From the IMG/VR virus record IMGVR_UViG_3300010366_000002, positions 1 to 54,145 of that record: a stretch of DNA of 54,145 nt. One strand, given 5' to 3'. The stretch's first letter is position 1. Each line of letters begins with the position of its first letter. The position numbers were made by a program, and so were the translations under genes. Shown in pieces: positions 1,420-39,560 of the stretch. Below the pieces are notes generated by a model. That model saw only the letters and a program-made list of their open reading frames with translations, made no database searches and was not told the origin of the DNA. This DNA is from a virus (lineage: Duplodnaviria; Caudoviricetes).

Positions 1420-1716
1420 TTGACGTCCTCCGCCAGGTAAACCAGGCGGATTCCCTACGTTGGCCCTCAACGCCCTGAGGGGAGACCTATGCAGTGTCTC
1501 TTACTTATCAGCGCTTCTCATCGCCCTGACGACCATGCCTGCGTCAAGCATGGGAAGAAGCATCTCGGTACGTCCGTATGGGCCAGCCAGCTCCAGGCTG
1601 TCGTTCAACTGGCGCGCGACGCATGCTTCATGTGCGTTCACTATTGCGGTATCGCTTTTACGCACAGTCCTGCACTGTGCAACCCGCAAACGATATTTGA
1701 AAGAGCACGGCACAAC
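1420..1716 (-). ncRNA. omegaRNA-like ncRNA A (predicted guide CTTTCTTAGTCCATGACCTC, 1419->1400)
   Basis: Extended -10 TGaTATAAT at 1731->1723; homologous to 39252-39560 at both ends. Confidence 0.7.
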
Positions 1717-1859
1717 AGGATAATTATATCAAAGAAGTGTAGTTTTGTATATACGCAGCGTGTTAGGGGAATGACGCGGAGCGTCAGGGAATTGCTGCGA
1801 TGCAGCAACCTCCTATTCCTCTGTCCGCTGAAGCAGACAGCCCCCTAGGAGGAATCTGT
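1420..1859 (-). mobile_element. Non-autonomous IS200/IS605-family element A (left end + promoter + omegaRNA-like RNA + right end; no ORF)
   Basis: Minus-strand right end GAAT-CCGCCTGG-TTTA-CCTGGCGG-AGGACG-TCAA ending at 1420; left-end hairpin TTCCTCCTAGGGGG-CTGTCTGC-TTCA-GCGGACAG-AGGAATAGGAGG at ~1809-1855, homologous to elements B and C; left boundary uncertain by ~2 nt. Confidence 0.85.
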
Positions 1860-1917
1860 GTGTCCACCATTCCTGGGCCACTGCTGCAGAGCCAGCATGC
1901 CCGCAAAGGAGAGGACG

Positions 1918-2916
1918 ATGGGGTTTCATCTTACGAAAGCCGAAATCCACAAGCTGATGACCATGGACGAGGTGCTCGCGGAAGCGCGGCTCCTCGACAG
2001 CTACGGCGCCTACGAAGGCGAGCGTGAAGAGAGAGAGAGGCGCGAAACAAACATTCGCGAGCGCATCCTGTCGGGAGAAATGACGCCGTTTCGCTGGTGC
2101 GTCGGCTATGTTCCGTCCATAGGGCTCCGCCGCCGGGTGAACGGCCAGCATTCGAGTCACGTCTTTCTCAAGCTCACCGAGGAAGAGTACAAAATGGTGC
2201 ACTTCCCCGTTTTCATTGTGTACGAAGAGTATGAGTGTGAGACCGAGATTGATGTTGCCACGTTGTTTGAGCAGTTTGACCAACATTGGTCCGCACGTTC
2301 ACGCGAAGATTACATTGGGGCACACCTCGCCGTGCATCCTGAGCTGAACCAACGCATGAGTCGCGTTGCCGCTGACAAAGTCGTGCAGGGCCTCATGTGG
2401 TATCTCGAAAATGTCGAGGGCTTTGACAAGGGCTCCGCGCATGAGCAGTATGAGCTGCTGCACAAAAACAGCGAGTACGAAACGTTTATGTATTTTTGTG
2501 GCTATGGGCAACTCAACCTCAACAAGAAACTCAAGGAGCTGTGTCACCGGGCCGTCGTGGCGGCGATGTTTCACACCACCAGACAAGGATCGGCGGAGGA
2601 TAGGGATTTCTGGAAAGTCGTCTCGGGGGGACCGCAATCGATTCTTGATGGCGACAGCCATCACGCGAAGATTGCCGCATTTTTGGAGCATGCGGTCACC
2701 CAGAACTATGACTGGCCTACGAAAATCCGCGGACAATTCAAGAACAAAAAGAATCCCAACCCTATCGAAATCTTTGCGACGTGCCTCAGAGTGTTTGCGG
2801 CGTGGAAAAAAGGTCACCGTCTCACCGAGGCCTTTGTCTCATTGCGTGAGCAAAGCGCCCAGTATACCGTGATCCATCTCTATCCCCTCACAGGCAAAGA
2901 GGGGCTCGCTGCCTAA
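1918..2916 (+). CDS. ParB/Srx-like (DGQHR-type) N-terminal domain protein
   Basis: RRVNGQHS motif; AAAGGAGAGG RBS before ATG 1918; the ORF-track start at 1858 falls at the element A boundary. Confidence 0.6.
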   Translation: MGFHLTKAEIHKLMTMDEVLAEARLLDSYGAYEGEREERERRETNIRERILSGEMTPFRWCVGYVPSIGLRRRVNGQHSSHVFLKLTEEEYKMVHFPVFIVYEEYECETEIDVATLFEQFDQHWSARSREDYIGAHLAVHPELNQRMSRVAADKVVQGLMWYLENVEGFDKGSAHEQYELLHKNSEYETFMYFCGYGQLNLNKKLKELCHRAVVAAMFHTTRQGSAEDRDFWKVVSGGPQSILDGDSHHAKIAAFLEHAVTQNYDWPTKIRGQFKNKKNPNPIEIFATCLRVFAAWKKGHRLTEAFVSLREQSAQYTVIHLYPLTGKEGLAA

Positions 2917-2918
2917 CC

Positions 2919-2995
2919 TTGACGTCCTCCGCCAGGTCAACGTGTCCTTCACCCCCAGCCAAGCTTCCAGCTCTGGCTGGAGCACTGGACACGAG
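2919..2995 (-). mobile_element. Remnant IS200/IS605-type element E (truncated right end fused to a left-end-like double hairpin)
   Basis: 2919-2937 identical to the terminal 19 nt of elements A and B; CGTGTCC...GGACACG stem enclosing CCAGCCA...TGGCTGG. Confidence 0.55.
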
Positions 2996-3080
2996 GTTGG
3001 TAGAGAAGGAATGGGACGCCTGGAGCGGTACCGCTCCAAGCGTCTCGTGGAAACTTCGAGGTCTAGAAAGGTCCCTGCTC

Positions 3081-3350
3081 ATGTCCCCTTCCCCCTGGCC
3101 CAGGCGCTGGATGCAGGCCCTGCCCCCCATCTCAGACCGCGCCTTTGTGGTCTGGTTCATGCTCATGCTCTTCCTGCTGGGCGTCGGCGTCGGCGTCGGC
3201 ATGGTGCTCTCGCTGCGGGACCCCGTCCACAGGGCGCAGACGCAGCTCTACTCCGTGGTCGAACGCCTGGAGATTTTGGAGCGGCTGCGCAACGTGGAGG
3301 AACGCCTCAAGGCCCTGGAGCAGCGCACGTCTCAGGAGCTACGACCATAA
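3081..3350 (+). CDS. Small membrane protein with C-terminal coiled coil
   Basis: GAAAGG RBS; TM AFVVWFMLMLFLLGVGVGVGMVL; LRNVEERLKALEQ heptads. Confidence 0.7.
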   Translation: MSPSPWPRRWMQALPPISDRAFVVWFMLMLFLLGVGVGVGMVLSLRDPVHRAQTQLYSVVERLEILERLRNVEERLKALEQRTSQELRP

Positions 3351-3821
3351 AGTTTCCTCCAAGGGGACTGCCTCCTTTCGGTGGCAGAGGAATTGGAGGT
3401 TGAGCCCCACGGGCTCAACAGATGTTCAATGTTTGTTCACTGTTTGTTTAGGCTTTGTTCACTGTTTCAAACCGTCCTACTATGCTACACTTTCCTCAAT
3501 ACGACCGTGTCAGGCATTCCAGCTTTGATCGCTGTCTGCCGCTTCAACACACGGTACGGCTCTTTCTAACATAACTTCGCGGGGTTGCTGGTCGTAGGGA
3601 CCAGCGTAAAAGTTGTGCCGCAAAGTAGAGAACCAATCCAGACAACCGACCGGCTTTGAGGCCGATGAGCAGGTGTCGCTGGTCAACCAGTCTGGGGCTC
3701 GGACGGAGCCTTTACGGCGTAACGTAGGGGTAGTAAACCCAAGCGTGCCGTAAGAAGCTGTTGTTAAAGTGACCTGCTTCGGCCAAAAGAAGCTGTCTGC
3801 TTGAGCTGACAGAGTCGTCAC
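3349..3821 (+). mobile_element. Non-autonomous IS200/IS605-family element C
   Basis: Target CCAT (3345-3348); GGGA at +16..+19 before the left-end hairpin CTGCC..GGCAG; right end GAAG-CTGTC..GACAG-AGTCG-TCAC; excision recreates an ATGA gene overlap. Confidence 0.9.
3498..3821 (+). ncRNA. omegaRNA-like ncRNA C (predicted guide GAGCACGACAGGCAGCCCGT, 3822-3841)
   Basis: TGcTACACT -10 at 3483-3491; 3' part GGCTCGGACGGAGCC-TTTACGGCGTAACG...CGTGCCGTAAGAAG resembles tnpB 3'-end RNAs. Confidence 0.7.
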
Positions 3822-3933
3822 GAGCACGACAGGCAGCCCGTGGGAGGACACCGCCGTCCTCGCAGCGCAAGGTCGCGCCTGGCCGTGGGGCGCCCCACGG
3901 ACTCCAGGCGCCCGAACCGGCATCCGAGCATGA
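3822..3933 (+). pseudogene. 37-codon ORF whose ATG was split by element C
   Basis: Joining 3348 to 3822 gives AGGAG-N8-ATG AGC ACG ... GCA TGA. Confidence 0.5.
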
Positions 3934-3937
3934 ACCC

Positions 3938-3966
3938 TTGCACTCCAGTATTGAGGATATTATAAT
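3938..3966 (+). promoter_or_regulatory. sigma70-type promoter
   Basis: TTGCAC-17 nt-TATAAT. Confidence 0.8.
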
Positions 3967-4005
3967 CATTACCGATATTGCTGGCCTCCCGTAGGCCGCA
4001 TGGAT

Positions 4006-4037
4006 CGACGAACCGACGAACCGATGAATCGACGAAC
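4006..4037 (+). repeat. 8-bp tandem repeat CGACGAAC x4 (one variant) in 5' UTR
   Basis: cgacgaac cgacgaac cgatgaat cgacgaac. Confidence 0.8.
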
Positions 4038-4061
4038 CGCGTTCACTGAAAGGACATTTCC

Positions 4062-4718
4062 ATGGTACAGTTTGTCTACAACCCTCCCTCCTTCAACGAC
4101 GTCTCGAACCTCACGCCGGGCTGGCACCCGGCCTTTCTGCTCGACATTGAGGACATCGAGACACCGCTCCAGTTCAAATCTCGCGAGAAGTATCCGCGCA
4201 GCCGTCGCTGGCGCCTGGCGGTCTGGGAAACGGACCTCTTGATTGACCAGCAAGTGACGCCAGAACGCCAGAGCGCCCTCTCGAGTAGTGCCTTTGCGCC
4301 GGCGTACACCCGCACCGATGGTCAGCACGTCCAGGCCGCCAAAGCCTATAAATGGACTGAGGCGTTACTGGGGCGCCAAATCGTCCCTGGGGAAGTGATT
4401 GACCTCTCAGCCCTCATGCCGCTTTCCTGTCGCGTGGAGGTCGAGCGTAAAAACGAATACGCCAACATTACGGCCATATCCCGCTATCCCGAGCTGGCGT
4501 CGAAGCTGACACCCGGCCTCAGGCAGTACCTCGCCGAGTTTCTCGGAACCTTTGGCGACCAGACGAACCAGGCACCGCGCTATCAGAATCCCCCTGTGGC
4601 CCAGGCACCGGCACCGCCGCCGCCGGTCCCGTCTGGCCTGCAAAGCTGGGGTACGCCCGGCACCCGACCCGCTCCATCACCGGCATCTGGCGCTGGCCCG
4701 AACACGCCGCGCTGGTAG
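4062..4718 (+). CDS. Putative phage ssDNA-binding/replication-organiser-like protein with Pro-rich tail
   Basis: GAAAGGA RBS; PGWHPAFLLDIED start, CRVEVERKNEYANI OB-like end, P/Q-rich tail ending in W. Confidence 0.5.
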   Translation: MVQFVYNPPSFNDVSNLTPGWHPAFLLDIEDIETPLQFKSREKYPRSRRWRLAVWETDLLIDQQVTPERQSALSSSAFAPAYTRTDGQHVQAAKAYKWTEALLGRQIVPGEVIDLSALMPLSCRVEVERKNEYANITAISRYPELASKLTPGLRQYLAEFLGTFGDQTNQAPRYQNPPVAQAPAPPPPVPSGLQSWGTPGTRPAPSPASGAGPNTPRW

Positions 4719-4730
4719 GAAGGGTGCGCC

Positions 4731-6071: not shown

Positions 6072-6074
6072 CGT

Positions 6075-6950: not shown

Positions 6951-7083
6951 TCCGGGGATGCAGCAGAGCCAAAAAAAAGAGGCACTCACTCCCCTGGGAC
7001 GTGTCGATAATCACCCCCAGGGGGGATCGTGGCTCCTAGACGTTTCCCACACGCTAGAAATCGATTTTTAAAGGACCCCTCTG

Positions 7084-7374
7084 ATGCAACCGATTCCCAT
7101 GGAATTTCAGGAAGGACCCTTTCACTATCAGCAAGTACGTCGGGAAGGCATGCTGGCCATCTATCGCCAGACGCATCGCCACGGTCCTATGACACGCTTC
7201 GAAGTGGTACGCCTGCATATCCAACGCGCCCATACCTGGCAAGATGGCACGACTACACCAGAGAAAGAAGCCTATCCTCCCGCCTCAGCCTGGGGAAGAT
7301 CGGGCTGGACTTGCTTCACGCTCCCCGAAGCCGAGGCACTCTTTACCGACCTCCAGCAGGAGACCCCGGCATGA
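7084..7374 (+). CDS. Conserved-looking phage hypothetical protein
   Basis: AAAGGA RBS; EAYPPASAWGRSGWT. Confidence 0.65.
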   Translation: MQPIPMEFQEGPFHYQQVRREGMLAIYRQTHRHGPMTRFEVVRLHIQRAHTWQDGTTTPEKEAYPPASAWGRSGWTCFTLPEAEALFTDLQQETPA

Positions 7375-7484
7375 AAGGACGGCGCTGGTTTCCCTGGGAC
7401 TGGTGGGCGCTGCTCGTGGTGCTGTGCGTGCTGCTGGCGCTGCTCGGCGGGCTGGTCTGGGACAGCCTGACGCTGCTCCTCTAG
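7371..7484 (+). CDS. 37-aa single-TM membrane protein
   Basis: AGGAG RBS, ATGA overlap, hydrophobic WWALLVVLCVLLALLGGLVW. Confidence 0.6.
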   Translation: MKGRRWFPWDWWALLVVLCVLLALLGGLVWDSLTLLL

Positions 7485-7488
7485 CGCC

Positions 7489-9705
7489 TTATTGCGCCCC
7501 CGTCCGATGCCGTATACGCCCGGCCAGAGCGCGGTACAGGGCTAACACGTTCGCATCGCTGAGAACCTGCGTATAGAGGCGCACGTCATCGAGCGTGCCG
7601 GTGCCAGTGACGACAAAGCCCGTCTTGTTCCAGCGACCGGCCTCAAACGCGACGTTGGTGAGCGTGCTGGAAGGCGCGCTAAACGGCCCCTGCGACGCCT
7701 TCAGTTGGCCGTTAATCCAGATTTTCCCGGCGCTGCTATTGCCCGCACCGCTTACCACGACATGGGTCCAGGTACCCAGATAGGGATGAAAGTCGGTATA
7801 CATCGAGCCGGGACCCCCTGGGCCGGAATCATCCCAGGTGCCATACTGCCAGTACAGCGTGCCGCCACAGGACACGCACACCCCCATCAAATTGGGCGTG
7901 ACACTGCCAAAGCCCAGACCTGGTCCATAGGTCGACCCGTCCGTGAGGACCCAGAACGCCAGCGTCACATCCTGATTCGCCGGCCAGCTCTCCAGGGTCG
8001 TCGCCACATAGCCCCCGCTTACCGCGATGCCAATGCCCTTGGCACCGACACGCCCCCCCACGTGGAGCGGCGGCGACGAGCCACTGAGCGCAGTAAGCGT
8101 GCCCGGATGCAGCGGGGGATCATGGATGGCCGAGTCCGCCGCACTGGTCCCCGTCGTCTCATCGAGACGCCAGTAGACATAGAGCTCCTGCGGGAGCGCG
8201 GGAGGGGCGGTGGTGCCGGCAAATTCCCAGGCGCCCATATCTGGTGCTCCCGTCCGTGTCGCACCACTGATGTCAGTCGTAATGCCCACGGCGGCACCCG
8301 TATTGACGGCGGGGCTGCTGGACTGGAGCTGAAACCATTCCCTGCCGCTTTGCCCCGCGGGCGCGCGATTATAGTCCAGACTCGGGTCGATATCCTGGTT
8401 CGGCAGCACATGGACAAACAGGGGATTGGGAGCCTCGCAGCCCACAGTGCCACAGTTCAGATTCGGGGTAATGGTATTTGTCCCGCTGCCTTCGCCGGTA
8501 TTGGAGATGGAATCATCATACGTCGTCATGCTTACCCGCATGGCCGTATTGCGCCACAAGAGGTTGTTTTCGACCAGGTTATTGTTGGCATTTGACGCCG
8601 CGCAGGCCCCGCCAGGGATGGGGGATCCGGCCCAGCCCCCCAGCAAAATGCTGTGATCGCAGGCGCCCCCTGACTTCAGATTCGCGTACACAATCGTGTT
8701 GTGGTACATCTGGTTGGTGTTGGCCTGCACATTGGAACAATTCTGGGCGAGGACAAAACCGCCCCCGTCGTGGGTTTGCCCATCATTCATGGTCGAGTGG
8801 AGGGGGCCGACACCCGTACGAAACAAAATATTGTTGTAGATTTGGTTCTCACTCCCGCAAATGAGCACCGGTCCGCCCGTATCATGGAAATAATTGTTGC
8901 GCAGGACATTGCGGTGGAAGTGATCGCCGGTGGAATAGCCATGAAACGCAAACCCGGTGGTGCGCGTAAATTCATTGCGCTCAAAGAGATTGTCACTGCC
9001 GCTAATATAGACGCCATAGGAAAAGACCGCCCAGTTCAAGGGACTACTGTTATCGCACATCGTCACTGGCGTGTTCGGGCCTACCCCAATATCATGAATA
9101 TAGTTATCGGAGAAGGTATAGAAGGCGCCATTGCCTTCCTGCCCAAAGCCGATAGTAAACGAGTCTGTATTGCCAGTCGTGCAGCCTCCCTCGATTTCAT
9201 TGTTAATGAACACAATATCATGCACGGATCCCGCGGCACACGGACCACCCCAACTCGTCGCGGCGCCGGCTTTGTTGAGAGGAATTTTGAAATGGAGGCC
9301 ATCCATGGTGACGTAATTCTTGGCAACGCCATCATCTTGGGTCGTACAGTTGGTAGAACGTTTCCCATTGCTCGTGAGGGTAGACGCCACGCCGAGCGTA
9401 TCCAGGATTGCTTGGCGCTTGTTGTCGGCTTTGAGTATCGTCGGCCGCCCGGAACTCCCCGCCGGGAGCACGTCATCCAGGGCCTCATGATAGATCCCAT
9501 CTAACAACACCAGGGTATCGCCCGAAGCCAGGCAGGAGGCACCTTTATTGGCACTATTGGCCGGGGTCCCGCGATTGGTGGCGGCTGAACAGTTATTATC
9601 CGGACCGCCAGGGCTGGCATAATAGGTTGTGGCCACACCGACGGACGCCTGGAGGAGCAGCCCGGTGGCGAGGAGCCAGAACACCCACGTGCGTCGTCGC
9701 ATCAT
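7489..9705 (-). CDS. Signal-peptide protein: right-handed beta-helix (pectin-lyase-like) + C-terminal LamG domain
   Basis: MMRRRTWVFWLLATGLLLQASVGVA-TTYY; NYFHD/NNILF repeats; PDMGAWE; YWRLDE...LDDVRLYTQVLS. Confidence 0.85.
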   Translation of the reverse strand: MMRRRTWVFWLLATGLLLQASVGVATTYYASPGGPDNNCSAATNRGTPANSANKGASCLASGDTLVLLDGIYHEALDDVLPAGSSGRPTILKADNKRQAILDTLGVASTLTSNGKRSTNCTTQDDGVAKNYVTMDGLHFKIPLNKAGAATSWGGPCAAGSVHDIVFINNEIEGGCTTGNTDSFTIGFGQEGNGAFYTFSDNYIHDIGVGPNTPVTMCDNSSPLNWAVFSYGVYISGSDNLFERNEFTRTTGFAFHGYSTGDHFHRNVLRNNYFHDTGGPVLICGSENQIYNNILFRTGVGPLHSTMNDGQTHDGGGFVLAQNCSNVQANTNQMYHNTIVYANLKSGGACDHSILLGGWAGSPIPGGACAASNANNNLVENNLLWRNTAMRVSMTTYDDSISNTGEGSGTNTITPNLNCGTVGCEAPNPLFVHVLPNQDIDPSLDYNRAPAGQSGREWFQLQSSSPAVNTGAAVGITTDISGATRTGAPDMGAWEFAGTTAPPALPQELYVYWRLDETTGTSAADSAIHDPPLHPGTLTALSGSSPPLHVGGRVGAKGIGIAVSGGYVATTLESWPANQDVTLAFWVLTDGSTYGPGLGFGSVTPNLMGVCVSCGGTLYWQYGTWDDSGPGGPGSMYTDFHPYLGTWTHVVVSGAGNSSAGKIWINGQLKASQGPFSAPSSTLTNVAFEAGRWNKTGFVVTGTGTLDDVRLYTQVLSDANVLALYRALAGRIRHRTGAQ

Positions 9706-16031: not shown

Positions 16032-16624
16032 TTTGGCCTATTACCAGTGAGCGCGTAATACACATCCAGCGCGGTTAGGGACCCCACATAGACCATGGTT
16101 GCGGGCGTTGCCTGCTGGCCACCCCCTGCACTCGTATCCGCAAACAGGGCTTCGCCGCGCAGGGCCTGACGCTTGGAAATCGCATAGAGATAGCTGCGCT
16201 GGGTCGCCGAAGCCCCGGTACCACTGAAGATCTTGTCGTAGGCACTCCTGACCTGCGCTAGGGAAGGATTAATCTGGCCCGAGCGGTTCATCACCTCCCA
16301 GCCGTCACGCTCCTGCACACTCTGCCCAATGTAGGTCGTCCAATTCCAGGTAGACCCGTCATAGGCTGTTGCCTCATAGATGTCTTTTTCTGCGAGCTGG
16401 ACCTTCCACACCCAGAAGGCCGACTGTACCACGTTGTAGGCGTCGGCTATGGCCGCATGGTGGGCTGCGGCCACGAGCGTCGCGAATTCTGCCTGGTTGG
16501 TAACCGTAATATCCGTATTCAGGGCCTTGTACTGAGCATCGCTTAATCCCTGGCCATACCCTGGCCTGTACAAGCAGAGCAGCACAAGGAATGGCGCGAT
16601 GATGAGGAGATGTTTTGTGCGCAT
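16028..16624 (-). CDS. Signal-peptide hypothetical (tail-associated) protein
   Basis: [39 protein letters not shown]. Confidence 0.75.
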   Translation of the reverse strand: MRTKHLLIIAPFLVLLCLYRPGYGQGLSDAQYKALNTDITVTNQAEFATLVAAAHHAAIADAYNVVQSAFWVWKVQLAEKDIYEATAYDGSTWNWTTYIGQSVQERDGWEVMNRSGQINPSLAQVRSAYDKIFSGTGASATQRSYLYAISKRQALRGEALFADTSAGGGQQATPATMVYVGSLTALDVYYALTGNRPK

Positions 16625-19600: not shown

Positions 19601-19779
19601 TGCAACGTCCCCACCGGACCAATCGCGCCTGTCCCTCCACCGCCACCCCCGCCCGTCGCCGTGGATGTCGTGACCACGCCACGGGTGCCGGTGGGCGGCA
19701 GACTCCCGTACACCACCGCGGCGTGCGTCGGTGCCGCCATAAGCAGCCAGCAGAGGAGAAGCAGCATGCAGCCCAGCAT
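16624..19779 (-). CDS. Signal-peptide long tail-fibre-like protein with 100-aa repeats
   Basis: [21 protein letters not shown]; G/T-rich repeats with [20 protein letters not shown]. Confidence 0.85.
16960..18531 (-). repeat. Five ~300-bp coding repeats in the fibre gene
   Basis: AGGGNVS units start at 18531, 18231, 17931, 17490, 17190 (spacing 300, 300, 441, 300). Confidence 0.9.
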
Positions 19780-25603: not shown

Positions 25604-27526
25604 TTAAATAGCATAACCACCACCATAGCCACCGCTATAGCTCCCACCGCCCCCATAGCCGCCATACCCGCCATACCCGCCGAAACCTCGTCCCTGCCCG
25701 AGCACATACTGCCGTAACAGATCATAGTTAAAATAGCCCTGCGCGGCGTTGCCGATACCCTGCAACCCGCCCAGCCAGGCATTGGCCGCACCGACGCGGC
25801 CCGCGGCCTGGGCCGCGCCCGCACTGGTGAGGTTCGCTGCTTGCTGCGCCGCCGTCTGACCGCCTAATTGACCGGTGGCCCCGAGCGACGTCTGCCCGAT
25901 CCCCGCCAGATTCGCCAACTCATTATACTGCATATTCCTGAGCCCGCTCTGGGTGGCGAGATTGGTGGTATATTGACTCAGACGCCGCTGTTGATCCGTC
26001 TCGTTCGCCGTCTGCGCGAGTTCATACTGCCGCTGCGTTTCCCCCAGGGCCCGCTGATAGAGATCGGCATTGGCTTGATAGGCCCGCTGGTAATTCATCT
26101 GGTTCAGACCCAGGGCCCGCTGATACGCTGCGCCGTATTCCTGGGACGCCATTTGTTGCCCAAAATCCTGGGCGGCTTTAAGTTGTCCCCCCGATACCAG
26201 TGTGCCCTGGGCGGCAGCACTGCGCTCCAAGGCCTTTTGTCCTTGCTGCACGCGGAAGGCATAGCCGGGATCGTCTTGCAGCACTTGCTGCCCGGTCGTC
26301 GGCGTAAAGGCATACTGCCCAGGCGAGAGCGGCTGGAACTGCGCCGCTTGCGCCGCCGTCATGCCCCCGTCTCCTCCAGGACCTCCAGCACCTCCAGCAG
26401 CTCCAGCAGCACCAGCTCCTCCAGGACCTCCAACCCCGCTACTAAGCCAGGGGGCATTCGGGGTAAAGGCATACGCGGAGGGATCAAGCGTCGGCGTGCG
26501 CTGAAAATTCGGATAGGTAAGCGGATTCATGGTCAGCGGGATGAGCTGGCCCAGACCATAGTACCCGGCTTCACGGTACGGGCCCTGATCCGCCCGCTGT
26601 TGCTGGTACATCTGCCACAGCGTCTGATTGGCTTGATTGGCCGCCTGGGCCTGGATATTGGCCGCATCCCGTGCGGCAGACGCCGACATGCCGGCGCCAA
26701 TCAGGCCGCCGATGGTTTGAATGCCCGTGGCGGCCAGTGGGCCGTAGCCGCCCAACAGGCCGCTGCCTCCGGCACCCAGCAAGGAGCCCAATACCCCCCC
26801 ACCGCCCGTGGCTGGTGTCAGAGTCCCCAGCGTCGCCGCAGTGACGTCTGGTGCCAACGTGCTGATCGGAATGCCCGCCGCTAGGGCCCCGGCCCCGGCC
26901 CCGGCCCCGGCCTCGGCCCCTCCTGCGGCCCCGGCCCCGACCCCGGCCGCCAGTTCTCCGGCCCCGGCTCCGGCCGCCGGGGCACCCCCTAAGTACCCAT
27001 ACGCCGCCGGAATGCCATACCCCGCTAACAGCCCGCCTGCCGCCACCAGCCCGATCCCGGCCAGCGAGCCCCAGACCGGCCCAAGCCCGAACAGCCCGCC
27101 CTGCTCCTGGGGATACGACACGGACGTCGGGCCGCCCGTCGCTGGGTCAATCTTGGTTAAATCCCAGCCCCTACCTCCGACATCGTTCCTGGCCGCAGTC
27201 GGATGATAATAGGTGCCAATCACATTGCCCTGGGCATCAATGCGCTCAAGCCCGCCCCCACCGCCTGGCGTCTGGCTGATATCCTGCCCAGGCGTATAGG
27301 AGGCATCGCGGTACCACGCCTGCCCCGGAGCATTGGGATCTTCTGTCGTCCATTCGCCGCCCGGCCCACGCGGGTCCGTATTGAGGTTCTGGGGCTGCGC
27401 CGGGACCCGCTGAAAGCCTCGATCCGTGGTAATATACCAACCGATGCCGGCATTGTCGGTATACTCCGGCCAGTACTTTTTACCATCATCGGTGTGATAC
27501 CACCCAGAGGGATCATAATACGGCAT
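25604..27526 (-). CDS. Ejection/DNA transfer protein (P22 gp7-like)
   Basis: G/A-rich; DPGYAFRVQQGQKALERSAAAQG; AAQAAGRVGAANAW. Confidence 0.75.
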   Translation of the reverse strand: MPYYDPSGWYHTDDGKKYWPEYTDNAGIGWYITTDRGFQRVPAQPQNLNTDPRGPGGEWTTEDPNAPGQAWYRDASYTPGQDISQTPGGGGGLERIDAQGNVIGTYYHPTAARNDVGGRGWDLTKIDPATGGPTSVSYPQEQGGLFGLGPVWGSLAGIGLVAAGGLLAGYGIPAAYGYLGGAPAAGAGAGELAAGVGAGAAGGAEAGAGAGAGALAAGIPISTLAPDVTAATLGTLTPATGGGGVLGSLLGAGGSGLLGGYGPLAATGIQTIGGLIGAGMSASAARDAANIQAQAANQANQTLWQMYQQQRADQGPYREAGYYGLGQLIPLTMNPLTYPNFQRTPTLDPSAYAFTPNAPWLSSGVGGPGGAGAAGAAGGAGGPGGDGGMTAAQAAQFQPLSPGQYAFTPTTGQQVLQDDPGYAFRVQQGQKALERSAAAQGTLVSGGQLKAAQDFGQQMASQEYGAAYQRALGLNQMNYQRAYQANADLYQRALGETQRQYELAQTANETDQQRRLSQYTTNLATQSGLRNMQYNELANLAGIGQTSLGATGQLGGQTAAQQAANLTSAGAAQAAGRVGAANAWLGGLQGIGNAAQGYFNYDLLRQYVLGQGRGFGGYGGYGGYGGGGSYSGGYGGGYAI

Positions 27527-27945: not shown

Positions 27946-28425
27946 CTAGAGCCGGCCAGTGGTCGCCAGCACGGGCCACGCCACCATCTCCGCGACCGCC
28001 TGCGCCCCCTCTGCCTGCCTGCGCTCGATCATCTCTCGTGTATGAAGGGTACGCGGTTCCTGTCCCGGCCATACCTGCTGCGACAGCGCTTCGACGGCAT
28101 GCATCAGTACATCCGCTTCGGTAATCGTCAGATAGCGCTCTGGACGGCAGCCCCAGGGACACGGCATATTCTCCGTCACACCCCAAAGTCGGCAGATCAT
28201 GGGGCGGCTGGCGTAGACCGTGCATTTGCCACGCTTGAGTAGCGGACACACCACCTGTTTTGCTTCTGCCAGCCGCAAAGGACTCGCACGCTTAATCCGT
28301 ATCCATTCGACATACGCCATGCCGAGGGGTCCGCAGCAATCCTGGCAGAGTCCTTGACAGGCAATGGAGGGCACCTGGGCATACATCTGTTCAAGGGCAG
28401 CACAGGCATCTTTAAACGTCATCAC
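27946..28425 (-). CDS. YkgJ-family cysteine-cluster (Zn/Fe-chelating) protein
   Basis: CQGLCQDCC...CPLL...CTVYASRPMICRLWG. Confidence 0.85.
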   Translation of the reverse strand: MMTFKDACAALEQMYAQVPSIACQGLCQDCCGPLGMAYVEWIRIKRASPLRLAEAKQVVCPLLKRGKCTVYASRPMICRLWGVTENMPCPWGCRPERYLTITEADVLMHAVEALSQQVWPGQEPRTLHTREMIERRQAEGAQAVAEMVAWPVLATTGRL

Positions 28426-29609
28426 CGTGAGGCAATCCCTATATATTCAAACCAGCCACCCAGATACGCCACGATCCCGGTATTGGTATCGGCAGCGTCC
28501 GCCCCCTCGCGCTGTACCTGAAAAATGATCGCATCGTTGCCGCCAAACACGTTCGGGCCAAAGGGGAAAAACCGCAAATACGAGGTATCCGCCGCCGCCG
28601 GTGTCCAGGGCGCCTGCGTAAAGCCCAGCCCATACTGCGGCTGCCCATCCCGAATCAGGATCGCGGTATAGGACAATTTCACATTATTGCCCGCCACGGA
28701 GTTCGTCAAAAAGAGCTTCAGCGTCGAGTTCTGGGTAAAATCCATGCCCAGAGGCGCCGGCACGATCCAGGCATACGTCGTGTTGGAGCCGTGCGGCCAT
28801 CCCGCCACGGCATACGACCCGTGTCCGAGGGTCGCAATACGGGTCGTCAGGGTCGTATACCATTGCGTCGTGCCCTTCATCTCGCCGATAATAAAGCGCA
28901 ACTCCTGAATTTGCTGCTCGCCAAAGAGCGGTAAAACCTCCGTGCCCACCTCGCCCGGATTAATGCCCAGTTGCATGGACGTCAAGAGTTCCTGACTTTG
29001 ATACCAGGGCACGGTCTGACTCCCCCCGCCTTTCATCTCGCGCAGCATCGTATGCAGTTGCGCGATTTGTTGCTCGCCAAACAGCGGCAACTGTTCCGTG
29101 CCCACTTCGCCCGGATCCGCATTGAATTGAAACTGTGCCAGCGTTTCGTAGCTCTGGCGCCAGTTCGACAAATTCTTCAGTTCGCTGACCATGGTGCGGA
29201 GTTGCAGAATTTCTTGCGCCACATTCTGCGCCAGAATTTCCGTCCCAGGCTCACCAGGGTCCATGCCGCTGTTGCCCTCTTGCACGGTATCCGACACCCC
29301 GGAGGTAATCGTGGTCGCATCACTCAAGGGCACCGGGACGATGATGCCGTCGATGGTCGACAGCGGTACATCCTGGGCATTATGGACTGATAGTTTATAT
29401 GAAACCGAACACGTAAGGTATACATCCATGAATCCGCCAGCATCAGCTATGGTAGGATTTGTATTAATCCCAGTTCCAGCAGCGCTATTGTACGTGGCCA
29501 GCGGTGTCGTAGTCCCGCCGTGATAGGTATACAGCTTCCCGCCACTCAATGGATTTCCATTTGCATCAAAGAGTTGTAAGCGAGGGAGCGCCAACGCTGC
29601 AACAGCCAT
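28422..29609 (-). CDS. Tailspike/fibre attachment protein with podoviral head-binding-type N-terminus and three internal repeats
   Basis: QLFDANGNPLSGGKLYTYHGGTTTPLATY; (D/N)PGExGTE...QLR..xxExK x3. Confidence 0.75.
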   Translation of the reverse strand: MAVAALALPRLQLFDANGNPLSGGKLYTYHGGTTTPLATYNSAAGTGINTNPTIADAGGFMDVYLTCSVSYKLSVHNAQDVPLSTIDGIIVPVPLSDATTITSGVSDTVQEGNSGMDPGEPGTEILAQNVAQEILQLRTMVSELKNLSNWRQSYETLAQFQFNADPGEVGTEQLPLFGEQQIAQLHTMLREMKGGGSQTVPWYQSQELLTSMQLGINPGEVGTEVLPLFGEQQIQELRFIIGEMKGTTQWYTTLTTRIATLGHGSYAVAGWPHGSNTTYAWIVPAPLGMDFTQNSTLKLFLTNSVAGNNVKLSYTAILIRDGQPQYGLGFTQAPWTPAAADTSYLRFFPFGPNVFGGNDAIIFQVQREGADAADTNTGIVAYLGGWFEYIGIASR

Positions 29610-29658: not shown

Positions 29659-29760
29659 TGCTATACTTCCTCGTGCAGCTAGGGTCTGCAGCCCGACAAG
29701 CCAGCACCTGTACTGGTTGCTGCACACATCTTTTACAGGTTCTAACCAAACAGGAGGTTA
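29659..29760 (+). promoter_or_regulatory. Extended -10 promoter and structured leader RNA of the HNH gene
   Basis: TGcTATACT 29659-29667; GTGCAGC...GCTGCAC stem 29673-29725 enclosing two hairpins. Confidence 0.6.
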
Positions 29761-33457: not shown

Positions 33458-33459
33458 AA

Positions 33460-33882: not shown

Positions 33883-33903
33883 ACGTTAGTCCTTATCAAA
33901 TTG

Positions 33904-35142: not shown

Positions 35143-35241
35143 AGGGCATACATATCCTCTACATTGGCACCGGAGCACGGCAGTTGCCTGCCAAAGCGAG
35201 CCGTGCGCCGGTAGGTCCTATATGCCCGCAAGCCACTTGGG

Positions 35242-36288
35242 TCACGGGCGTCCGTTGCGTTCTTTGAGCCGCATCTGCTCATAATCACTGAGCGGCATCC
35301 CCGCATGAAATCCCAGCACGGGTTGCGCACTCCCCGTCCCCACCGGAGCCAGGGGGACCGGCGCCGGGGGCGCCAGCGCCACAGACGAGGCCGCTCGCCC
35401 GGAACGGTCACGACTGTGCCCCTGCTCCCTGGCCAAGCGCGCTTCTAAACCAACCAGATAGCGCGCAGCCGCATCCGGCGTCATGGCGTTAAAGGCGCGC
35501 AACTCTTCGGGGTTCGTGCCGAGGTGATACATCAGGGCCGCCCCGTGCTCCGAACCGACGAAAAACGGTGCCAGCACACTGCCCGGACCCGTCGCGACTT
35601 GCAGCTGCGCCATACGGCGATCATAGTCCGGGTATTTAAGACGCCCTTCTTCGGTGCGCTGCCGCCACACCTGCTCCACCTGCTGCGCCGCCTGTGCCCG
35701 CTGGTTCGCCACGGTCTCCGCGGTCTCCAGCTCCCGCCAATACAGCCGCAAATCATCTTCATACTGCTGATAATCGCCGTAGTGCTGTGGCTGCGGCCGG
35801 GGGCGCATCCCCGGAGGCACGGCCGGACCCTGCCCCTGCGGCTGTCCCTGTGGCTCCACTCTCTCCCGCTGCAGGGCGGCTAACTGTCCCTCCAGAAACG
35901 CTAAGCGCTGTTCACGCTCGATGTCCCGCGCCAGCAACTCCGTATGCCGGCGCTGATAGTTTTGATTCTCTTCCCACAGCCGGGCCCGAAACCTGCGGTT
36001 CGACTCGCCCGGATGCTGGCCCAAATCCTGAGGCGTAGGCGCTGGAGGCGCTGCGGGCTCCGCAGATTCCTCAAGCTCCGCGCCCTCGTCGTCTCCCGGC
36101 TCTGTGGGCTCCACAGGCACCGGGATGTCATCGTCATCCCCCGCTGCGGGCTCCGCAGGGGGCGGTGGTGCGGTGGGTGCAGGCGGTGTCGTCTCGACCG
36201 TGAACCGTGGATGATTGGCATCCGCGACCGGCGTAATCGTGCCGTCTGCATTGAGCACCGCGCCACTAGCAAATATGGGTCCTGCCAT
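35242..36288 (-). CDS. Scaffolding protein
   Basis: Acidic/Pro-rich N-term, coiled coil, KYPDYD, GAALMYHLGTNPEE; directly upstream of coat. Confidence 0.8.
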   Translation of the reverse strand: MAGPIFASGAVLNADGTITPVADANHPRFTVETTPPAPTAPPPPAEPAAGDDDDIPVPVEPTEPGDDEGAELEESAEPAAPPAPTPQDLGQHPGESNRRFRARLWEENQNYQRRHTELLARDIEREQRLAFLEGQLAALQRERVEPQGQPQGQGPAVPPGMRPRPQPQHYGDYQQYEDDLRLYWRELETAETVANQRAQAAQQVEQVWRQRTEEGRLKYPDYDRRMAQLQVATGPGSVLAPFFVGSEHGAALMYHLGTNPEELRAFNAMTPDAAARYLVGLEARLAREQGHSRDRSGRAASSVALAPPAPVPLAPVGTGSAQPVLGFHAGMPLSDYEQMRLKERNGRP

Positions 36289-36357
36289 CTGGTGTACTCC
36301 TCGTCACAGCCCGGTTTGGGTCGGGCAGCCACCCACGATAATCGGCGTCTCAATAAC

Positions 36358-36397
36358 GCAAAAAGGCGCTGCCTCGCTCGTGCACGAGACAGCGCCT
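36358..36397 (-). terminator. Intrinsic terminator-like hairpin inside the scaffold 5' leader
   Basis: Minus strand AGGCGCTGTCTCG...CGAGGCAGCGCC-TTTTT. Confidence 0.55.
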
Positions 36398-36469
36398 CAG
36401 AGGTGCGTCACATTCCTAGTGGCCGCCAGGATAGACGCCGATATGGAAAATTGTCTACGCCTATAATAC

Positions 36470-36846
36470 AAGTTTGTTCAAGGTTTTTCTATACCTTGTT
36501 TAGGCTTTGTTTACTGTTTCATGTTGTCCTACTGTGCTATACTTCTCCCTGTCTGTGGAGTAGATGGTGTCCATTGCCACAGACAGTTTTTGTTCCCTTC
36601 CAAGGCTCTTCGACAACACAGCGTAGGTGGTTGAGAGAGGCAGTCTCTCTCGTAAAACGTTGTACGCATAGCAAGAACCTCTCGTCAGTCCTGGAGCTTC
36701 TTGACGTTGCTCTAGGCGCGCCCAATGGCGGGGCGCTCAACAGGGTACGAGGCCCGGCCGACCGGGACCCACCTCAAGAACCTGAACCGGCAACTTCCAG
36801 GGACGGTCCCTGGAATCCGCCTCGTTCACGGGGCGGAGGATGTCAA
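36470..36846 (+). mobile_element. IS200/IS605-derived element D (promoter + omegaRNA-like RNA + right end; left end not found)
   Basis: Right end GAAT-CCGCCTCG-TTCA-CGGGGCGG-AGGATG-TCAA; promoter region homologous to C. Confidence 0.75.
36550..36846 (+). ncRNA. omegaRNA-like ncRNA D (predicted guide GTCTTGCCACACCACATCAA, 36847-36866)
   Basis: TGcTATACT -10 at 36535-36543; boxA-like motif and conserved stem-GTAAAA module. Confidence 0.65.
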
Positions 36847-36880
36847 GTCTTGCCACACCACATCAAGGTCAAGGCAGCGC

Positions 36881-37636
36881 TCAGGCATAGAGGGACCCCT
36901 GTTTTGGCTTCGACGATGGCAACGGCACCGGGAACAAATGCAGTTGCTGCGTCAAGACTTCCAAGCGCCGACAGGCATACTCAAAATAGGCGGGATTGAT
37001 TTCAATGCCTATAAACCCACGCTGCAACTGCAGCGCCGCGTATCCCGTCGTGCCCGAACCCATAAATGGATCAAGCACGACCTGTCCGGGTAAACTGGCC
37101 CGATTGACCAACCAGCGCATCATCCTAATGGGCTTGGCACAGGGATGCGCGTGCAGATTCGCATCATTGCCCGAGGTCTGAGCACAGGCATTGGGACGCG
37201 ATCCTTGACCAATGGCGAGATAGGGATCTTTCCCATAATAGAGAATCGGTGACATACACGTAAAGCCCCACCGGCTGCACCCCGTGCCGGCGGCGAAGAA
37301 AAAACAGCCAATATCATCGGCGGAGGGATAGCGCCCGAGATTCCGTACCCCTGATATCACCGCCATACAGGTAGCCAGATTCCGACACTGGGTCAGAATA
37401 GGCAGCACCACGTTCTCAAAATACGCGACTGTATCCTCATGTGCAAAGGTATCTGGACGGCGCGTACCCTTACGCTGCCCATTCCCGAGACGGCGCGAGC
37501 CCATTTTGCCTCGCAACTCCACTCCATAAGGCGGATCCGTAATGACCGAATCCACCGGCGCAAGCGTAGACACAATCTCCGCTGCATCGCCACAATAGAG
37601 CGTACAGGCACCTATCTGCTCCATCGTCCAACTCAA
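36881..37636 (-). CDS. DNA methyltransferase (N6-A/N4-C, beta class)
   Basis: VITDPPYG ... HPCAKP ... VLDPFMGSGTTG. Confidence 0.92.
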   Translation of the reverse strand: MSWTMEQIGACTLYCGDAAEIVSTLAPVDSVITDPPYGVELRGKMGSRRLGNGQRKGTRRPDTFAHEDTVAYFENVVLPILTQCRNLATCMAVISGVRNLGRYPSADDIGCFFFAAGTGCSRWGFTCMSPILYYGKDPYLAIGQGSRPNACAQTSGNDANLHAHPCAKPIRMMRWLVNRASLPGQVVLDPFMGSGTTGYAALQLQRGFIGIEINPAYFEYACRRLEVLTQQLHLFPVPLPSSKPKQGSLYA

Positions 37637-37932
37637 GTCTTCTTCCCCTTCGGCATCGCCACTAACTCTTTCATCGTCATATTATCACGGCCGTTGCGCC
37701 CCGCTACCCCAAACGTACTGGCACCATAGGTCGTATTGCCCTGGCCACGCCCATAGCCGTTGCCATTGCCATTGCCATTGCCATTCCCATTCTCTCTGCC
37801 GTTCCCATTCTCTCTACCATTGCCATTACCATTGCCGTTGCGCTCCAGCATCTTATGTGCCATCCGTTCAGTCTCAAGCGCTTTGGCGCCAATCGCGCGA
37901 GTCAAATCACCGTTTCTGCCGTTGCGTGCCAT
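37633..37932 (-). CDS. Small basic protein with Asn-Gly repeat
   Basis: NGNGNGNGRENGNGRENGNGNGNGNGNG; AAGGGG RBS. Confidence 0.6.
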   Translation of the reverse strand: MARNGRNGDLTRAIGAKALETERMAHKMLERNGNGNGNGRENGNGRENGNGNGNGNGNGYGRGQGNTTYGASTFGVAGRNGRDNMTMKELVAMPKGKKT

Positions 37933-38239
37933 TCTTTTTCCCCTTCTTGCTGCCACCCACTTCAATACCCGGATACTTCGCATGCACCTTGCGCTTCACC
38001 GCCGCCTGCTCCGCTGACGTGCCGTGTTGCGCCACCCGCGCTAAAGCGTTCCTAGCTCTGGCCTTTGTATCTATTGGATATGATCCTTTTTGACCCTTAC
38101 TCTTCTCTTCAGCAGTCGGGGGAAGAGCGAACTGGCCTTTGGACAAGCCCACCCGGCCGCTCGTGGTGATTTTGCCGCCCGATTCCTTCGCCGCCTTGAT
38201 CTTGCGGCCCGTCGCCGGATTCGTTTTTGTCTTCGCCAC
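37907..38239 (-). CDS. Small basic phage protein
   Basis: GGAGG RBS + GTG; QFALP..SYPIDTKARARNALAR. Confidence 0.7.
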   Translation of the reverse strand: MAKTKTNPATGRKIKAAKESGGKITTSGRVGLSKGQFALPPTAEEKSKGQKGSYPIDTKARARNALARVAQHGTSAEQAAVKRKVHAKYPGIEVGGSKKGKKNGTQRQKR

Positions 38240-38298
38240 GTTTCAGAACCTCCAGTATCTCTGGCAAGGATGCCGTCATCAACTGCACCAGGTCTGCC

Positions 38299-38595
38299 TC
38301 AGTCAGTATCAACATCCTCCTCCTCGGCAACAGCCGCAAACACGCGCCCACAGCAACTCATCCTCACAGGGAAGCCCTCGATCGGACGCCACTGACCACA
38401 GCACGCTATCTCCATCGGGGCATGGCCCTGCGTGCGGCGGGTATAAAGCGTACCGGCATAGTCAGCGGGTAGACGCGGACTCGGCGTATAGCACTGAGAA
38501 CAGGCGCTATACGGCTCTTGATCGTTGGGATAGCCACAGACGCCACAGAGGCCCGCGGCCCGGCGGCAACGATAAACCACAGAGGACGTCCCCAC
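38299..38595 (-). CDS. Cys-rich zinc-finger-like hypothetical protein
   Basis: CGVC, CSQC, CC pairs. Confidence 0.55.
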   Translation of the reverse strand: MGTSSVVYRCRRAAGLCGVCGYPNDQEPYSACSQCYTPSPRLPADYAGTLYTRRTQGHAPMEIACCGQWRPIEGFPVRMSCCGRVFAAVAEEEDVDTD

Positions 38596-38598
38596 CGT

Positions 38599-38835
38599 TT
38601 ACACCTGTCTCGGACGGCGCCGAAGCGACGCCAGATGCGCCTGGAAACGCGACTCACGCGCCTGCAGGGCCGTGCGCACCGCATGCGCCGCACTCTCCCA
38701 GGCTGAGCGCTGCTCGGGAGTCTGGTTCGGCCAGGCCGGTAACCCCTCGTTGTGCACGCTCCGCCAGCCCTGATGATCCCCATACGCCTCATAGGCGACC
38801 TGACCTAAGCTGCGCAGGGCTCTCGTATCGCTCAT
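38599..38835 (-). CDS. Hypothetical protein
   Basis: LGQVAYEAY...LPAW...AWESAA; GGAGG RBS, ATGA overlap. Confidence 0.65.
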   Translation of the reverse strand: MSDTRALRSLGQVAYEAYGDHQGWRSVHNEGLPAWPNQTPEQRSAWESAAHAVRTALQARESRFQAHLASLRRRPRQV

Positions 38836-39104
38836 GGCTGTGCCCCTCCGGTCACGGCCTGCGACTGCGGCTGTGGACCAGGCGCCAGCAGCAAGGCCGC
38901 CTGACTTACTGGATCGGCCAGGGAGTCAAAACCCGGCTGCGCCACGTGTTGTTGCACCGCTGGCCAGTCGACCTGGTCAAAGTTCGGGTACGCCTCCCGG
39001 TAGCGCTGGATCATGGCCTCCGTCTGCCGGATCCCCGCCCCCAGCTGCTCCCGCAGTTGTTGCCGTAAAGCTCTGGTTTCCATACTGCTCGTGCCGTTAG
39101 CCAC

Positions 39105-39560
39105 ATTTTCTCCAAGGGAGCTGCCGGCCTTCAGTCGGCAGGGGATTTGGAGGTTGAGCCCCACGGGCTTAACTCTTGTTCAAGGTCTGTTCAAGGTTTG
39201 TTCAGTCTTTGTTCACTGTTTCTCTTAGACATAGTGTGCTAGACTTTCAGACAGTATGCCTGCTCTTTCAAATATCGTTTGCGGGTTGCTGTTCGCAGGG
39301 AACAGCGTAAAAGCGATACCGCAAAGTTCGCACCATACGAGGTACTGCGTGGTCGTCTGGTTGTTTCAGCATATCGCTGGCCAGACATAAGACCATCCAT
39401 TCAGATGCCTCTTGCAGAGACTGTTGCTGTCTCTGTTGCGTCTGCTAGAAGGCTGGTCCTTTGGGGCAGACGTAAGTAAGAGTGATAGCATCTCACTCCC
39501 CTCAGGACGTTGAGGGCCAACCTGGGGAATCCGCCTGGTTTACCTGGCGGAGGACGTCAA
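39105..39560 (+). mobile_element. Non-autonomous IS200/IS605-family element B
   Basis: Target CCAC (39101-39104); GGAG before left-end hairpin CTGCCGGC-CTTCA-GTCGGCAG; right end GAAT...TCAA; precise excision restores the ORF. Confidence 0.92.
39252..39560 (+). ncRNA. omegaRNA-like ncRNA B (predicted guide GAGTTCCAGGTAGTGGTGAT, 39561-39580)
   Basis: TGcTAGACT -10 at 39237-39245; homologous to ncRNA A with compensatory changes. Confidence 0.7.

Follow-up and report, generated by a model that had tools for sequence, protein, structure and literature searches.

Protein-less IS200/IS605-type elements in a soil phage genome belong to a family with a conserved 5' RNA module and an omegaRNA-like 3' part

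The stretch of DNA analysed here (the window) is the complete IMG/VR virus record IMGVR_UViG_3300010366_000002, the 54,145-bp genome of a P22-like phage with direct terminal repeats, whose source is soil. It carries four related elements, designated A, C, D and B in map order, which have ends of the IS200/IS605 type, contain no conserved protein gene and are built around a predicted structured RNA. In the reading that we favour, with a probability of about 0.6, each element is a non-autonomous, PATE-like IS200/IS605 transposon whose sole cargo is a promoter-driven RNA, composed of a conserved 5' module and a TnpB-type omegaRNA scaffold, while TnpA and TnpB are supplied in trans. Direct support for this reading comes from the anatomy of the ends, the conservation and covariation of the RNA, the likeness of its 3' part to tnpB-linked RNAs, and the absence of tnpA and tnpB from the phage together with their presence in two genomes that bear family members.

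Four related elements with ends of the IS200/IS605 type

Direct reading, a repeat finder, alignment and a self-search all returned the same four elements. Element A (1420-1859, minus strand) comprises a left end that follows ACAC, a promoter-like site, the RNA and a right end terminating in TCAA at 1420; A-like copies occur elsewhere, in loci L026 and L047. Element C (3349-3821, plus strand) begins after CCAT (3345-3348) and ends with TCAC (3818-3821), and element B (39105-39560, plus strand) begins after CCAC (39101-39104) and ends with TCAA (39557-39560). Left and right subterminal hairpins are present on one strand in A, B and C, which have no terminal inverted repeats. Element D (~36470-36846, plus strand) consists of a repeat/promoter block, the RNA and a right end terminating in TCAA at 36846; it has no left end and is therefore presumably immobile. 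The left end of A (1809-1859, minus strand), read directly, is a nested hairpin, CCTCCTA..GGGG-CTGTCTG..CGGACAG-AGGAAT..TAGGAGG, and the same layout was seen in L047 and L026.

An earlier note on this DNA, made by a model from the sequence alone, had described the four elements, the missing left end of D and an IS608-like pairing between tetramers and cleavage sites at both ends, and all of this was borne out. Its inventory had missed a solo half right end at 2919-2941 (minus strand), which consists of the 3' half of the hairpin plus GGACGTCAA and is 96% identical to the right end of B over 24 nt.

The similarity among the four copies is far above chance and, judged by alignment, mosaic and divergent, with no sign of a recent burst. 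A and B share the right end (88% over 88 nt, 1420-1507 and 39473-39560) and a core (84% over 64 nt), B and C have the left end and the promoter region in common (79% over 121 nt), and D shares with the other copies the repeat/promoter block (79% over 70 nt) and the right end (86% over 35 nt). The left-end hairpin of A resembles the right-end hairpin of C (91% over 23 nt).

The right-end pattern of A, B and D, GGAATCCGCC..GGCGGAGGAYGTCAA, was found in 19 viral contigs. In 14 of them an open reading frame (ORF) of 320-445 aa with TnpB C-terminal motifs ends 20-52 nt before the TCAA (lengths were taken from stop to stop, and three ORFs run to the edge of the locus); of the remaining five contigs, two are too short upstream to judge, two hold tnpB remnants and one (L026) is protein-less and A-like. 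The right ends of the phage elements are genuine IS200/IS605 ends.

Among 26 right ends of the wider family described below, ten read GAAT..TCAA, 13 read GAAG..TCAC (including that of L033, read by eye) and one GAAG..TCGC, while that of L047, GAAT..TCAC, breaks the rule and that of L064, whose hairpin is split by a group II intron, is an artefact. This tally indicates that the cleavage site and the tetranucleotide preceding the hairpin covary at their fourth bases. The rule, kept in 24 of the 25 interpretable ends, is that of IS608. On the left, the flank is CCAT in most members, CCAC in B and L047, and ACAC in A; before the left hairpin, CCAT pairs with GGGA and CCAC with GGGG or GGAG, as read by eye. 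The intron of L064 lies at 357-1102 of that locus (Rfam D1-D4-7, 78 bits; domain V, 61 bits).

A gene for a 332-aa orphan protein (1918-2916, plus strand) is located between A and the half right end. Since the latter lies directly after its stop codon, the gene is bracketed by the left end of A and a right-end fragment, both on the minus strand. The protein had no match in Pfam or PHROGs and no relatives in viral contigs, and it is not TnpB-like. In the ESM Atlas it is placed among phage proteins, with structural likeness to GmrSD_N, DndB (DGQHR) and ParB-like folds (TM 0.55-0.72).

Absence of protein genes and presence of promoter-like sites

Neither Y1 TnpA nor TnpB was detected anywhere in the record with the Pfam families PF01797, PF07282 and PF01385, all three of which were positive in control genomes, in agreement with the earlier note. 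TnpB was likewise not found in the phages designated G000, G003 and G004, and none of the 51 loci fetched through the family motif or the covariance model R1 (see below) contained a TnpB-like ORF, while the same queries matched all 30 control loci.

The elements do contain chance ORFs, of up to 119 aa in A (antisense) and 117 aa in D (sense), whose strand and place are not kept between copies. Three ORFs overlapping A, C and D had no match in Pfam, and the one in A, compared alone with PHROGs, had none there. The description of the RNA as ORF-free therefore holds for conserved ORFs but not for ORFs as such.

A promoter-like site of A (1723-1751, minus strand), TATACA-17-TGxTATAAT, was called by a simple scan. 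The putative extended -10 elements of B (TGcTAGACT, 39237-39245), C (TGcTACACT, 3483-3491, plus strand) and D (TGcTATACT) were recognized by eye only, because their -35 regions are weak and the scan misses them; of the promoters proposed earlier, the scan thus recovered only that of A. The promoter position is kept across the family, whose putative promoters are of two kinds.

TGTTYA direct repeats with a spacing of ~11 nt precede the promoters of B, C, D and several metagenomic members. They lie at 3423-3468 (plus strand) in C, upstream of the extended -10, at 36475-36520 (plus strand) in D, upstream of its promoter, and at 39177-39222 (plus strand) in B, where four TGTTCA copies stand upstream of the extended -10. 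These repeats look like transcription-factor binding sites.

A conserved 5' RNA module defines a wider family

All four copies share a 5' module of ~90 nt with the core GGTTGC-hairpin-GCGTAAAAG, located at 1625-1711 in A (minus strand), 3554-3642 in C, 36600-36688 in D and 39257-39343 in B (all plus strand), D being the most divergent. A covariance model of the module, R1, scored 68.4, 79.2, 53.0 and 70.7 bits, respectively, although these matches arise by construction, since the four copies belong to its training set.

Motif scans identified one further viral locus (L026), eight genome loci and 38 metagenome loci. At least four of the five hairpin pairs are formed in 36 of the 46 genome and metagenome loci; the ten hits with three pairs or fewer were treated as chance and dropped before alignment. 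Exact duplicates were removed as well. L042 was also dismissed as a chance match (hairpin 4/5 paired, no other family feature). Three of the eight genome loci have a paired hairpin, and these come from a Chloroflexia metagenome-assembled genome and a second metagenome-assembled genome. In total, about 30 further protein-less members were found in metagenomes, Chloroflexia genomes and another phage. R1 copies number four in the window, two in phage G004, none in phage G003, one in genome G001 and two in genome G002.

Pairing in the central hairpin reaches 98.8% across 32 distinct sequences, and six of its eight pairs have changed on both sides. The hairpin's covariation score was 0.646, compared to 0.165 in shuffles (none of 500 as high) and 0.09-0.14 when the partners were slid. 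A second, long-range helix of the module is 68% paired.

Members follow one constant layout. The left-end hairpins and a second small hairpin are followed by TGTTYA repeats or a different upstream block and by a promoter-like site; next come the module, in many cases preceded by a 5' stem, a scaffold that varies, and finally the right end. The module is joined to at least four different types of 3' scaffold and right end, and scaffolds and ends have presumably been exchanged around it by recombination. Members are found next to cellular genes (for an aminoacyl-tRNA synthetase, PurD, MacB and a peptidase) or phage genes (ERF recombinase, terminase). The other phage, G004, is a complete-looking 67-kb genome from the same collection; at 7368-8223 (locus L026) it carries two elements ~770 nt apart on the same strand, without TnpB.

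The module matched no family in Rfam 15, and R1 returned nothing real in 58 TnpB/TnpA loci (~300 kb), the 59th source in that search being L026 itself. Because R1 drew a blank in these loci, and no TnpB-like ORF is present in the 51 fetched loci, the family does not consist of deletion remnants. Since the most conserved part of the RNA, the 5' module, occurs in no tnpB-linked RNA examined, the RNA is also more than an omegaRNA.

The 3' scaffold resembles TnpB omegaRNA

The 3' part of the elements, their last ~110-130 nt, resembles TnpB omegaRNA, with the right end as the 3' terminus of the scaffold. The scaffold of A (1420-1553, minus strand) has a hairpin at 1534-1553 whose loop, TTGACG (1542-1547), complements the tail CGTCAA, and a right-end stem with a UUUA loop (1420-1454). 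In C (3694-3821, plus strand) the loop of the stem-loop GGGGCTCGGACGGAGCC (3694-3710) complements the tail TCGTC, and the right end, GAAG-hairpin-AGTCGTCAC, occupies 3789-3821. The scaffolds of D (36722-36846) and B (39436-39560), both on the plus strand, end in right-end stems with UUCA and UUUA loops, respectively. The loop of the predicted guide-proximal stem, at about -22 to -19, is thus UUUA in A and B, UUCA in D and UUGA in C. These features recall the omegaRNA of ISDra2, for which a guide-proximal UUUA loop at -20 to -17 and a pseudoknot between -5..-3 and -103..-105 are described (PMC10097598).

In 24 of 25 members the tail is complementary to a hairpin loop that lies 70-160 nt further upstream, compared to 12.2 ± 2.5 (maximum 19) in 300 tail shuffles. 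This loop-restricted test with a permissive threshold replaced a stricter test for perfect Watson-Crick 5-mers between tail and upstream sequence, in which the signal was weak (8 of 25, 3.7 expected; 16 of 1000 shuffles as high). The loop/tail variants are compensatory: GACGG/TCGTC, GATCG/TGATC, GACAC/GTGTC, GTGACA/TGTCAC, GGCAT/ATGTC and TTGACG/CGTCAA.

Two further covariance models were applied in opposite directions. R2, built from four protein-less scaffolds only, aligned over its whole length both with the 3' ends of five G002 tnpB genes (40-52 bits, E 1e-7 to 1e-10) and, at 24.9 bits, with D. R3, built from eight tnpB-linked 3' ends only, matched D, B and A at 43.5, 42.0 and 41.0 bits. 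In local alignments to tnpB 3' ends upstream of the hairpin, z reached 6-7.5 for one subtype and about 4.5 for C and B; for the scaffold of C it was 4.4-4.5 against the tnpB 3' ends of L098 and L099. A blastn comparison of the family RNAs with 48 TnpB loci returned only the right-end hairpin (~35 nt), apart from 58-70 nt shared by A and B with L014.

At gathering thresholds, Rfam left the elements unmatched in the whole window, where the only match was the int-alpA RNA. Below threshold, family HgcC (RF00062) matched the right-end region of D (31.4 bits, E 1e-4), A (17.5 bits) and B (14.9 bits) in sequence and structure. HgcC has the right-end-like tetraloop of RNAs at the 3' ends of IS1341-type tnpB genes (PMC4615843). 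A permissive Rfam scan of 12 family loci and four tnpB control loci gave no omegaRNA-type match; this blank says little, as Rfam seems to hold no general TnpB omegaRNA models. An IscB/IsrB omegaRNA (HEARO), which carries its guide at the 5' terminus and is read into the element from outside, was rejected, with no Rfam match at E values up to 10 in the two regions searched and with the internal promoter pointing to the right end.

The earlier note's proposal of a structured, apparently self-promoted RNA with an omegaRNA-like 3' part is upheld by the tetraloop stem, the loop-tail pairing and the R2 and R3 matches, including those of R2 to tnpB 3' ends, a comparison that the note had suggested. 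The Rfam comparison that it also suggested gave the sub-threshold HgcC matches only. Its idea of a stand-alone omegaRNA is supported for the 3' part, the additional 5' module had not been foreseen, and its interpretation as a whole is supported in part.

Flanks, mobility and partners in trans

The presumptive guides, assigned from anatomy only, are the 20 nt that follow the right ends. That of A (1400-1419, minus strand) follows TCAA on the 3' side and is antisense to the terminal part of ORF 677-1414, and that of C is at 3822-3841 (plus strand). The guide of D (36847-36866, plus strand) heads towards the 3' end of a methylase gene (36881-37636, minus strand), and that of B (39561-39580, plus strand) is antisense to the end of ORF 39540-39875 (minus strand), whose last six codons and stop sit inside the right end. 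Read-through from A, B and D would produce RNA antisense to the end of the adjacent gene, which makes an antisense effect another possibility. Searched against the window and G003, the guides of A-D hit their own flanks alone; no second target for these guides or for the flank of the half right end was found in these two genomes, all other hits being chance ones with 2-3 mismatches.

Mobility is supported by elements of the same type in different flanks, in one case A, L026 and L047 and in another L038, L062 and L071, and soil-run contigs aligning to window positions 36000-40000 contain other right-end copies with other flanks. The sister phage G003 (same collection, 54,684 bp), whose portal protein is 96% identical to that of the window, carries at 37080-37258 (locus L127) a truncated C-like copy with the left end, the promoter and the first 75 nt of the RNA, the core module being absent. 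This copy is inserted exactly after CGCCAT, which fixes the left boundary of the element; the window reads CGCCAC and the site is empty there (38238). At the site of D in G003 (near 35500) the repeat block is kept, and the RNA, right end and methylase gene are replaced by another gene.

Candidate partners are present in two genomes that bear family members, in line with the earlier note's idea of borrowed TnpA and TnpB. G001 (one family copy) has 73 TnpB-domain and nine TnpA matches, and G002 (two copies) has six and three, respectively. The right ends of their tnpB/tnpA loci are GAAG..TCAC and GAAT..TCAA, the same classes as in the family, and the right end of family locus L063 is 94% identical over 35 nt to that of tnpB locus L098.

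Proposed mechanism and alternative explanations

Under the favoured reading, the RNA would consist of (i) the conserved, structured 5' module and (ii) a scaffold of the TnpB omegaRNA type whose 3' end is the right-end cleavage site, and read-through past this site would append 16-20 nt of flank to serve as the guide. Y1 TnpA from the host would move the elements as single strands and insert them 3' of CCAY. A TnpB of the matching clade, likewise supplied by the host, would load the RNA in trans and cut CCAY plus flank, that is, the empty or excised site, and repair from an element-bearing copy would restore or spread the element. In a phage, such a drive would act between co-infecting or replicating genomes. 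Transcription, read-through, the use of TnpA and TnpB and any effect on the phage are the steps that we infer. A bolder version, which we hold to be rather doubtful, treats the 5' module as a new RNA domain for processing, stabilisation or TnpB loading that would make a self-sufficient, guide-only selfish gene out of any omegaRNA scaffold; with several such genes, phages would hijack host TnpB for homing into, or destroying, element-free rivals in co-infection, as a nuclease-free gene drive.

Several observations weigh against the favoured reading. No tnpB gene was found in the window or next to any family member. The search for empty alleles proposed in the earlier note returned no clean empty site: G003 lacks B, but also the adjoining 163 nt (window 39561-39723), and among the joints listed for contigs of three soil runs at window positions 36000-40000 none bridges B or D precisely. 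Few genomes contain the family (four of 151 in a class sample, including G001, and only G001 among 151 in a phylum sample), and a host search detected no portal relatives in 169 genomes of the class of G001. In A and in B, the left and right hairpins are of different sequence types. Within the scaffold, the tail-pairing loop of B, which is paired in A, L026 and L047, is degenerate (TGTTGC), and the near-identical right-end hairpin provides most of the R3 score of A, B and D. Upstream of the hairpin, A and D match tnpB 3' ends weakly (z <2), and beyond it the tnpB-3'-end homology of A and B is weak. The HgcC scores of D, A and B all fall below the gathering score of 50, and HgcC was not matched in 12 other family loci or four tnpB control loci. 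Finally, nothing like the 5' module, the best-conserved part of the RNA, occurs in the tnpB-linked RNAs examined, and a role independent of TnpB is possible for it.

In the alternative that follows from this last point, the module, as a regulatory RNA, a protein-binding RNA or a ribozyme, would itself be the real cargo and would act independently of TnpB, while the 3' part would be kept for the right-end DNA signals of TnpA. Besides its conservation and strong structure, the joining of the module to at least four scaffold and right-end types, its lack of a counterpart in the 58 TnpB/TnpA loci and of an Rfam family, and the antisense course of the RNAs of A, B and D into the end of a neighbouring gene are all consistent with such a role. 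We nevertheless consider it unlikely, given that the loop-tail complementarity ~70-160 nt from the end is kept by compensatory changes: a TnpB-type pseudoknot requires it, according to the ISDra2 report cited above (PMC10097598), and no need of TnpA for it is known. Moreover, the full-model match to tnpB 3' ends includes scaffold sequence upstream of the right-end hairpin.

The RNAs could also be of adaptive use to the phage, as the earlier note had proposed, either redirecting host TnpB against element-free rivals (homing or exclusion) or soaking up TnpB as decoys. The density of the elements would fit such a use, with four copies in 54 kb here and two in the 67-kb phage G004, compared to one or two per ~5-Mb genome, as would the divergent, mosaic state of the phage copies with no recent burst, the retention of D despite its absent left end, and the elements' own, possibly regulated promoters with TGTTYA repeats. 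On the other hand, the sister phage G003 has no complete copy, the guides match only their own flanks in the two genomes, members also adjoin ordinary cellular genes, and replicating phage DNA is rich in single strands and may be merely an easy target for TnpA, all of which makes this explanation quite improbable to us.

The view that the elements are inert remnants of tnpB-carrying insertion sequences after internal deletion is largely refuted and has very little probability left: true remnants with the same right end do exist (L019, with a left end and a tnpB tail, and L014), as does the truncated copy in G003, but no tnpB-derived sequence lies between promoter and scaffold, the promoter position is conserved, and the non-coding module is conserved and covaries in 32 sequences from many samples. 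The conserved design postulated in the earlier note, as opposed to one burst or random deletions, is accordingly upheld by the ~30 further members and their covariation. An IscB-type RNA, an IStron, a group I intron, a REPIN and a small protein gene were ruled out by orientation, the lack of Rfam matches and the lack of a conserved ORF.

Other features of the phage genome

The phage encodes a P22-type portal, coat and scaffold proteins, a tail-associated lysozyme-like protein, a primase-polymerase and two DNA methylases. Its portal protein is at most 34% identical to those of the nearest deposited phages, and element B had no blastn match in 50,697 deposited phage records. One homologue (P0003) of the portal encoded at 40787-43144 is 1124 aa long, is 71% identical over half of the query and contains a LAGLIDADG_3 domain (PF14528), suggesting that a related phage harbours an intein or homing endonuclease in its portal gene.

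Both ends of the record (1-156 and 53983-54145) are built of copies of the 20-mer AATGGAGAGGCCAAAGTCAC, five exact ones at the start and at least four at the end, with decayed copies adjoining. A tandem array of this 20-mer thus makes up the 'direct terminal repeat', and it may represent iterons, a packaging site or an assembly effect.

The int-alpA RNA (RF02996) lies at 29672-29739 (plus strand) and scored 41.5 bits against a gathering score of 35.8; the adjoining 395-aa ORF (28422-29609, minus strand) has no Pfam match. At 16967-18531 (minus strand), five to six tandem units of 300 nt, 72-80% identical, lie within a 1051-aa ORF (16624-19779) that is a probable tail or fibre protein with a repeated domain. 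In-frame 12-nt repeats of the GCCATT and GCCCCG types at 37738-37851 and 26862-26990, within minus-strand ORFs, encode low-complexity Gly/Asn-rich and Gly/Ala-rich stretches. The depth of soil contigs on the window peaks at 37742-37875.

Relation to known systems and significance

The guide-only concept is known, and the novelty that the earlier note had assumed for mobilised stand-alone omegaRNAs does not hold, since the idea is already in print. Such RNAs are said to work in trans (PMC10691335), PATEs are stated to 'often encode omegaRNAs' and to need TnpB in trans (bioRxiv 10.1101/2023.03.14.532601), and a transcribed PATE RNA, haloarchaeal VNG_R0052, was reported in 2015 (PMC4615843). Cutting of the empty site by a flank-derived guide is documented for tnpB-carrying elements (bioRxiv 10.1101/2023.03.14.532601) and was proposed for PATEs and stand-alone omegaRNAs (bioRxiv 10.1101/2023.03.14.532601, PMC10691335).

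Like the stand-alone omegaRNAs of OMEGA systems, which PMC10691335 summarises with reference to Altae-Tran and colleagues (2021), the present loci are mobilised guide loci free of effector and transposase and occur in genomes with effector loci; they differ in residing in phages, in having their own promoter-like sites and in joining an extra 5' module to several scaffolds. With PATEs (VNG_R0052 and the PATE-like elements of G. stearothermophilus) they share left and right IS200/IS605 ends without protein genes. The PATE descriptions cited mention no dedicated promoter, extra conserved RNA domain or phage location, and the present family, of 380-470 bp, is a sequence family of its own. As in the ISDra2 omegaRNA, the scaffold ends at the right end, with a UUUA-loop stem ~20 nt from the end and a predicted pseudoknot between the tail and a site ~100 nt upstream, but there is no overlapping tnpB ORF, ~150-190 nt are added at the 5' side and the sequences are unrelated. 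The HgcC match spans only the last ~110-135 nt of each element.

IS608 likewise has subterminal hairpins on one strand; in that element GAAT precedes the right hairpin, cleavage occurs after TCAA and the target is TTAC. The present elements differ from it in lacking tnpA and tnpB, in their target, CCAY, and in the nested double hairpin of the left end. The stand-alone RNAs that Altae-Tran and colleagues tested in 2021 were reportedly IscB/IsrB-type ones, in which the guide is 5'-terminal. The guide of the present elements would presumably be at the 3' end, as in TnpB systems, unlike in those RNAs.

The family, its 5' domain and its phage setting appear to be undescribed in Rfam 15, in the 50,697 deposited phage records and in the literature searched. 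What is new here is the defined family, the extra conserved RNA domain, the two kinds of promoter, the exchange of scaffolds and ends, and the dense residence in phages.

Guide-only IS200/IS605 derivatives thus form a coherent, widespread family of fixed design, with a putatively regulated promoter, a conserved 5' domain and an omegaRNA scaffold and right end that can be exchanged, that is dense in phage genomes and that protein-based finders of insertion sequences cannot see. The 5' module is a candidate new structured RNA motif and could inform the design of natural omegaRNA expression cassettes. If host TnpB does load these RNAs, an RNA-guided drive with a cell-supplied nuclease would have phages as its carriers and also as its beneficiaries or its victims, and the purpose of stand-alone omegaRNAs would become testable in a simple phage-host setting.

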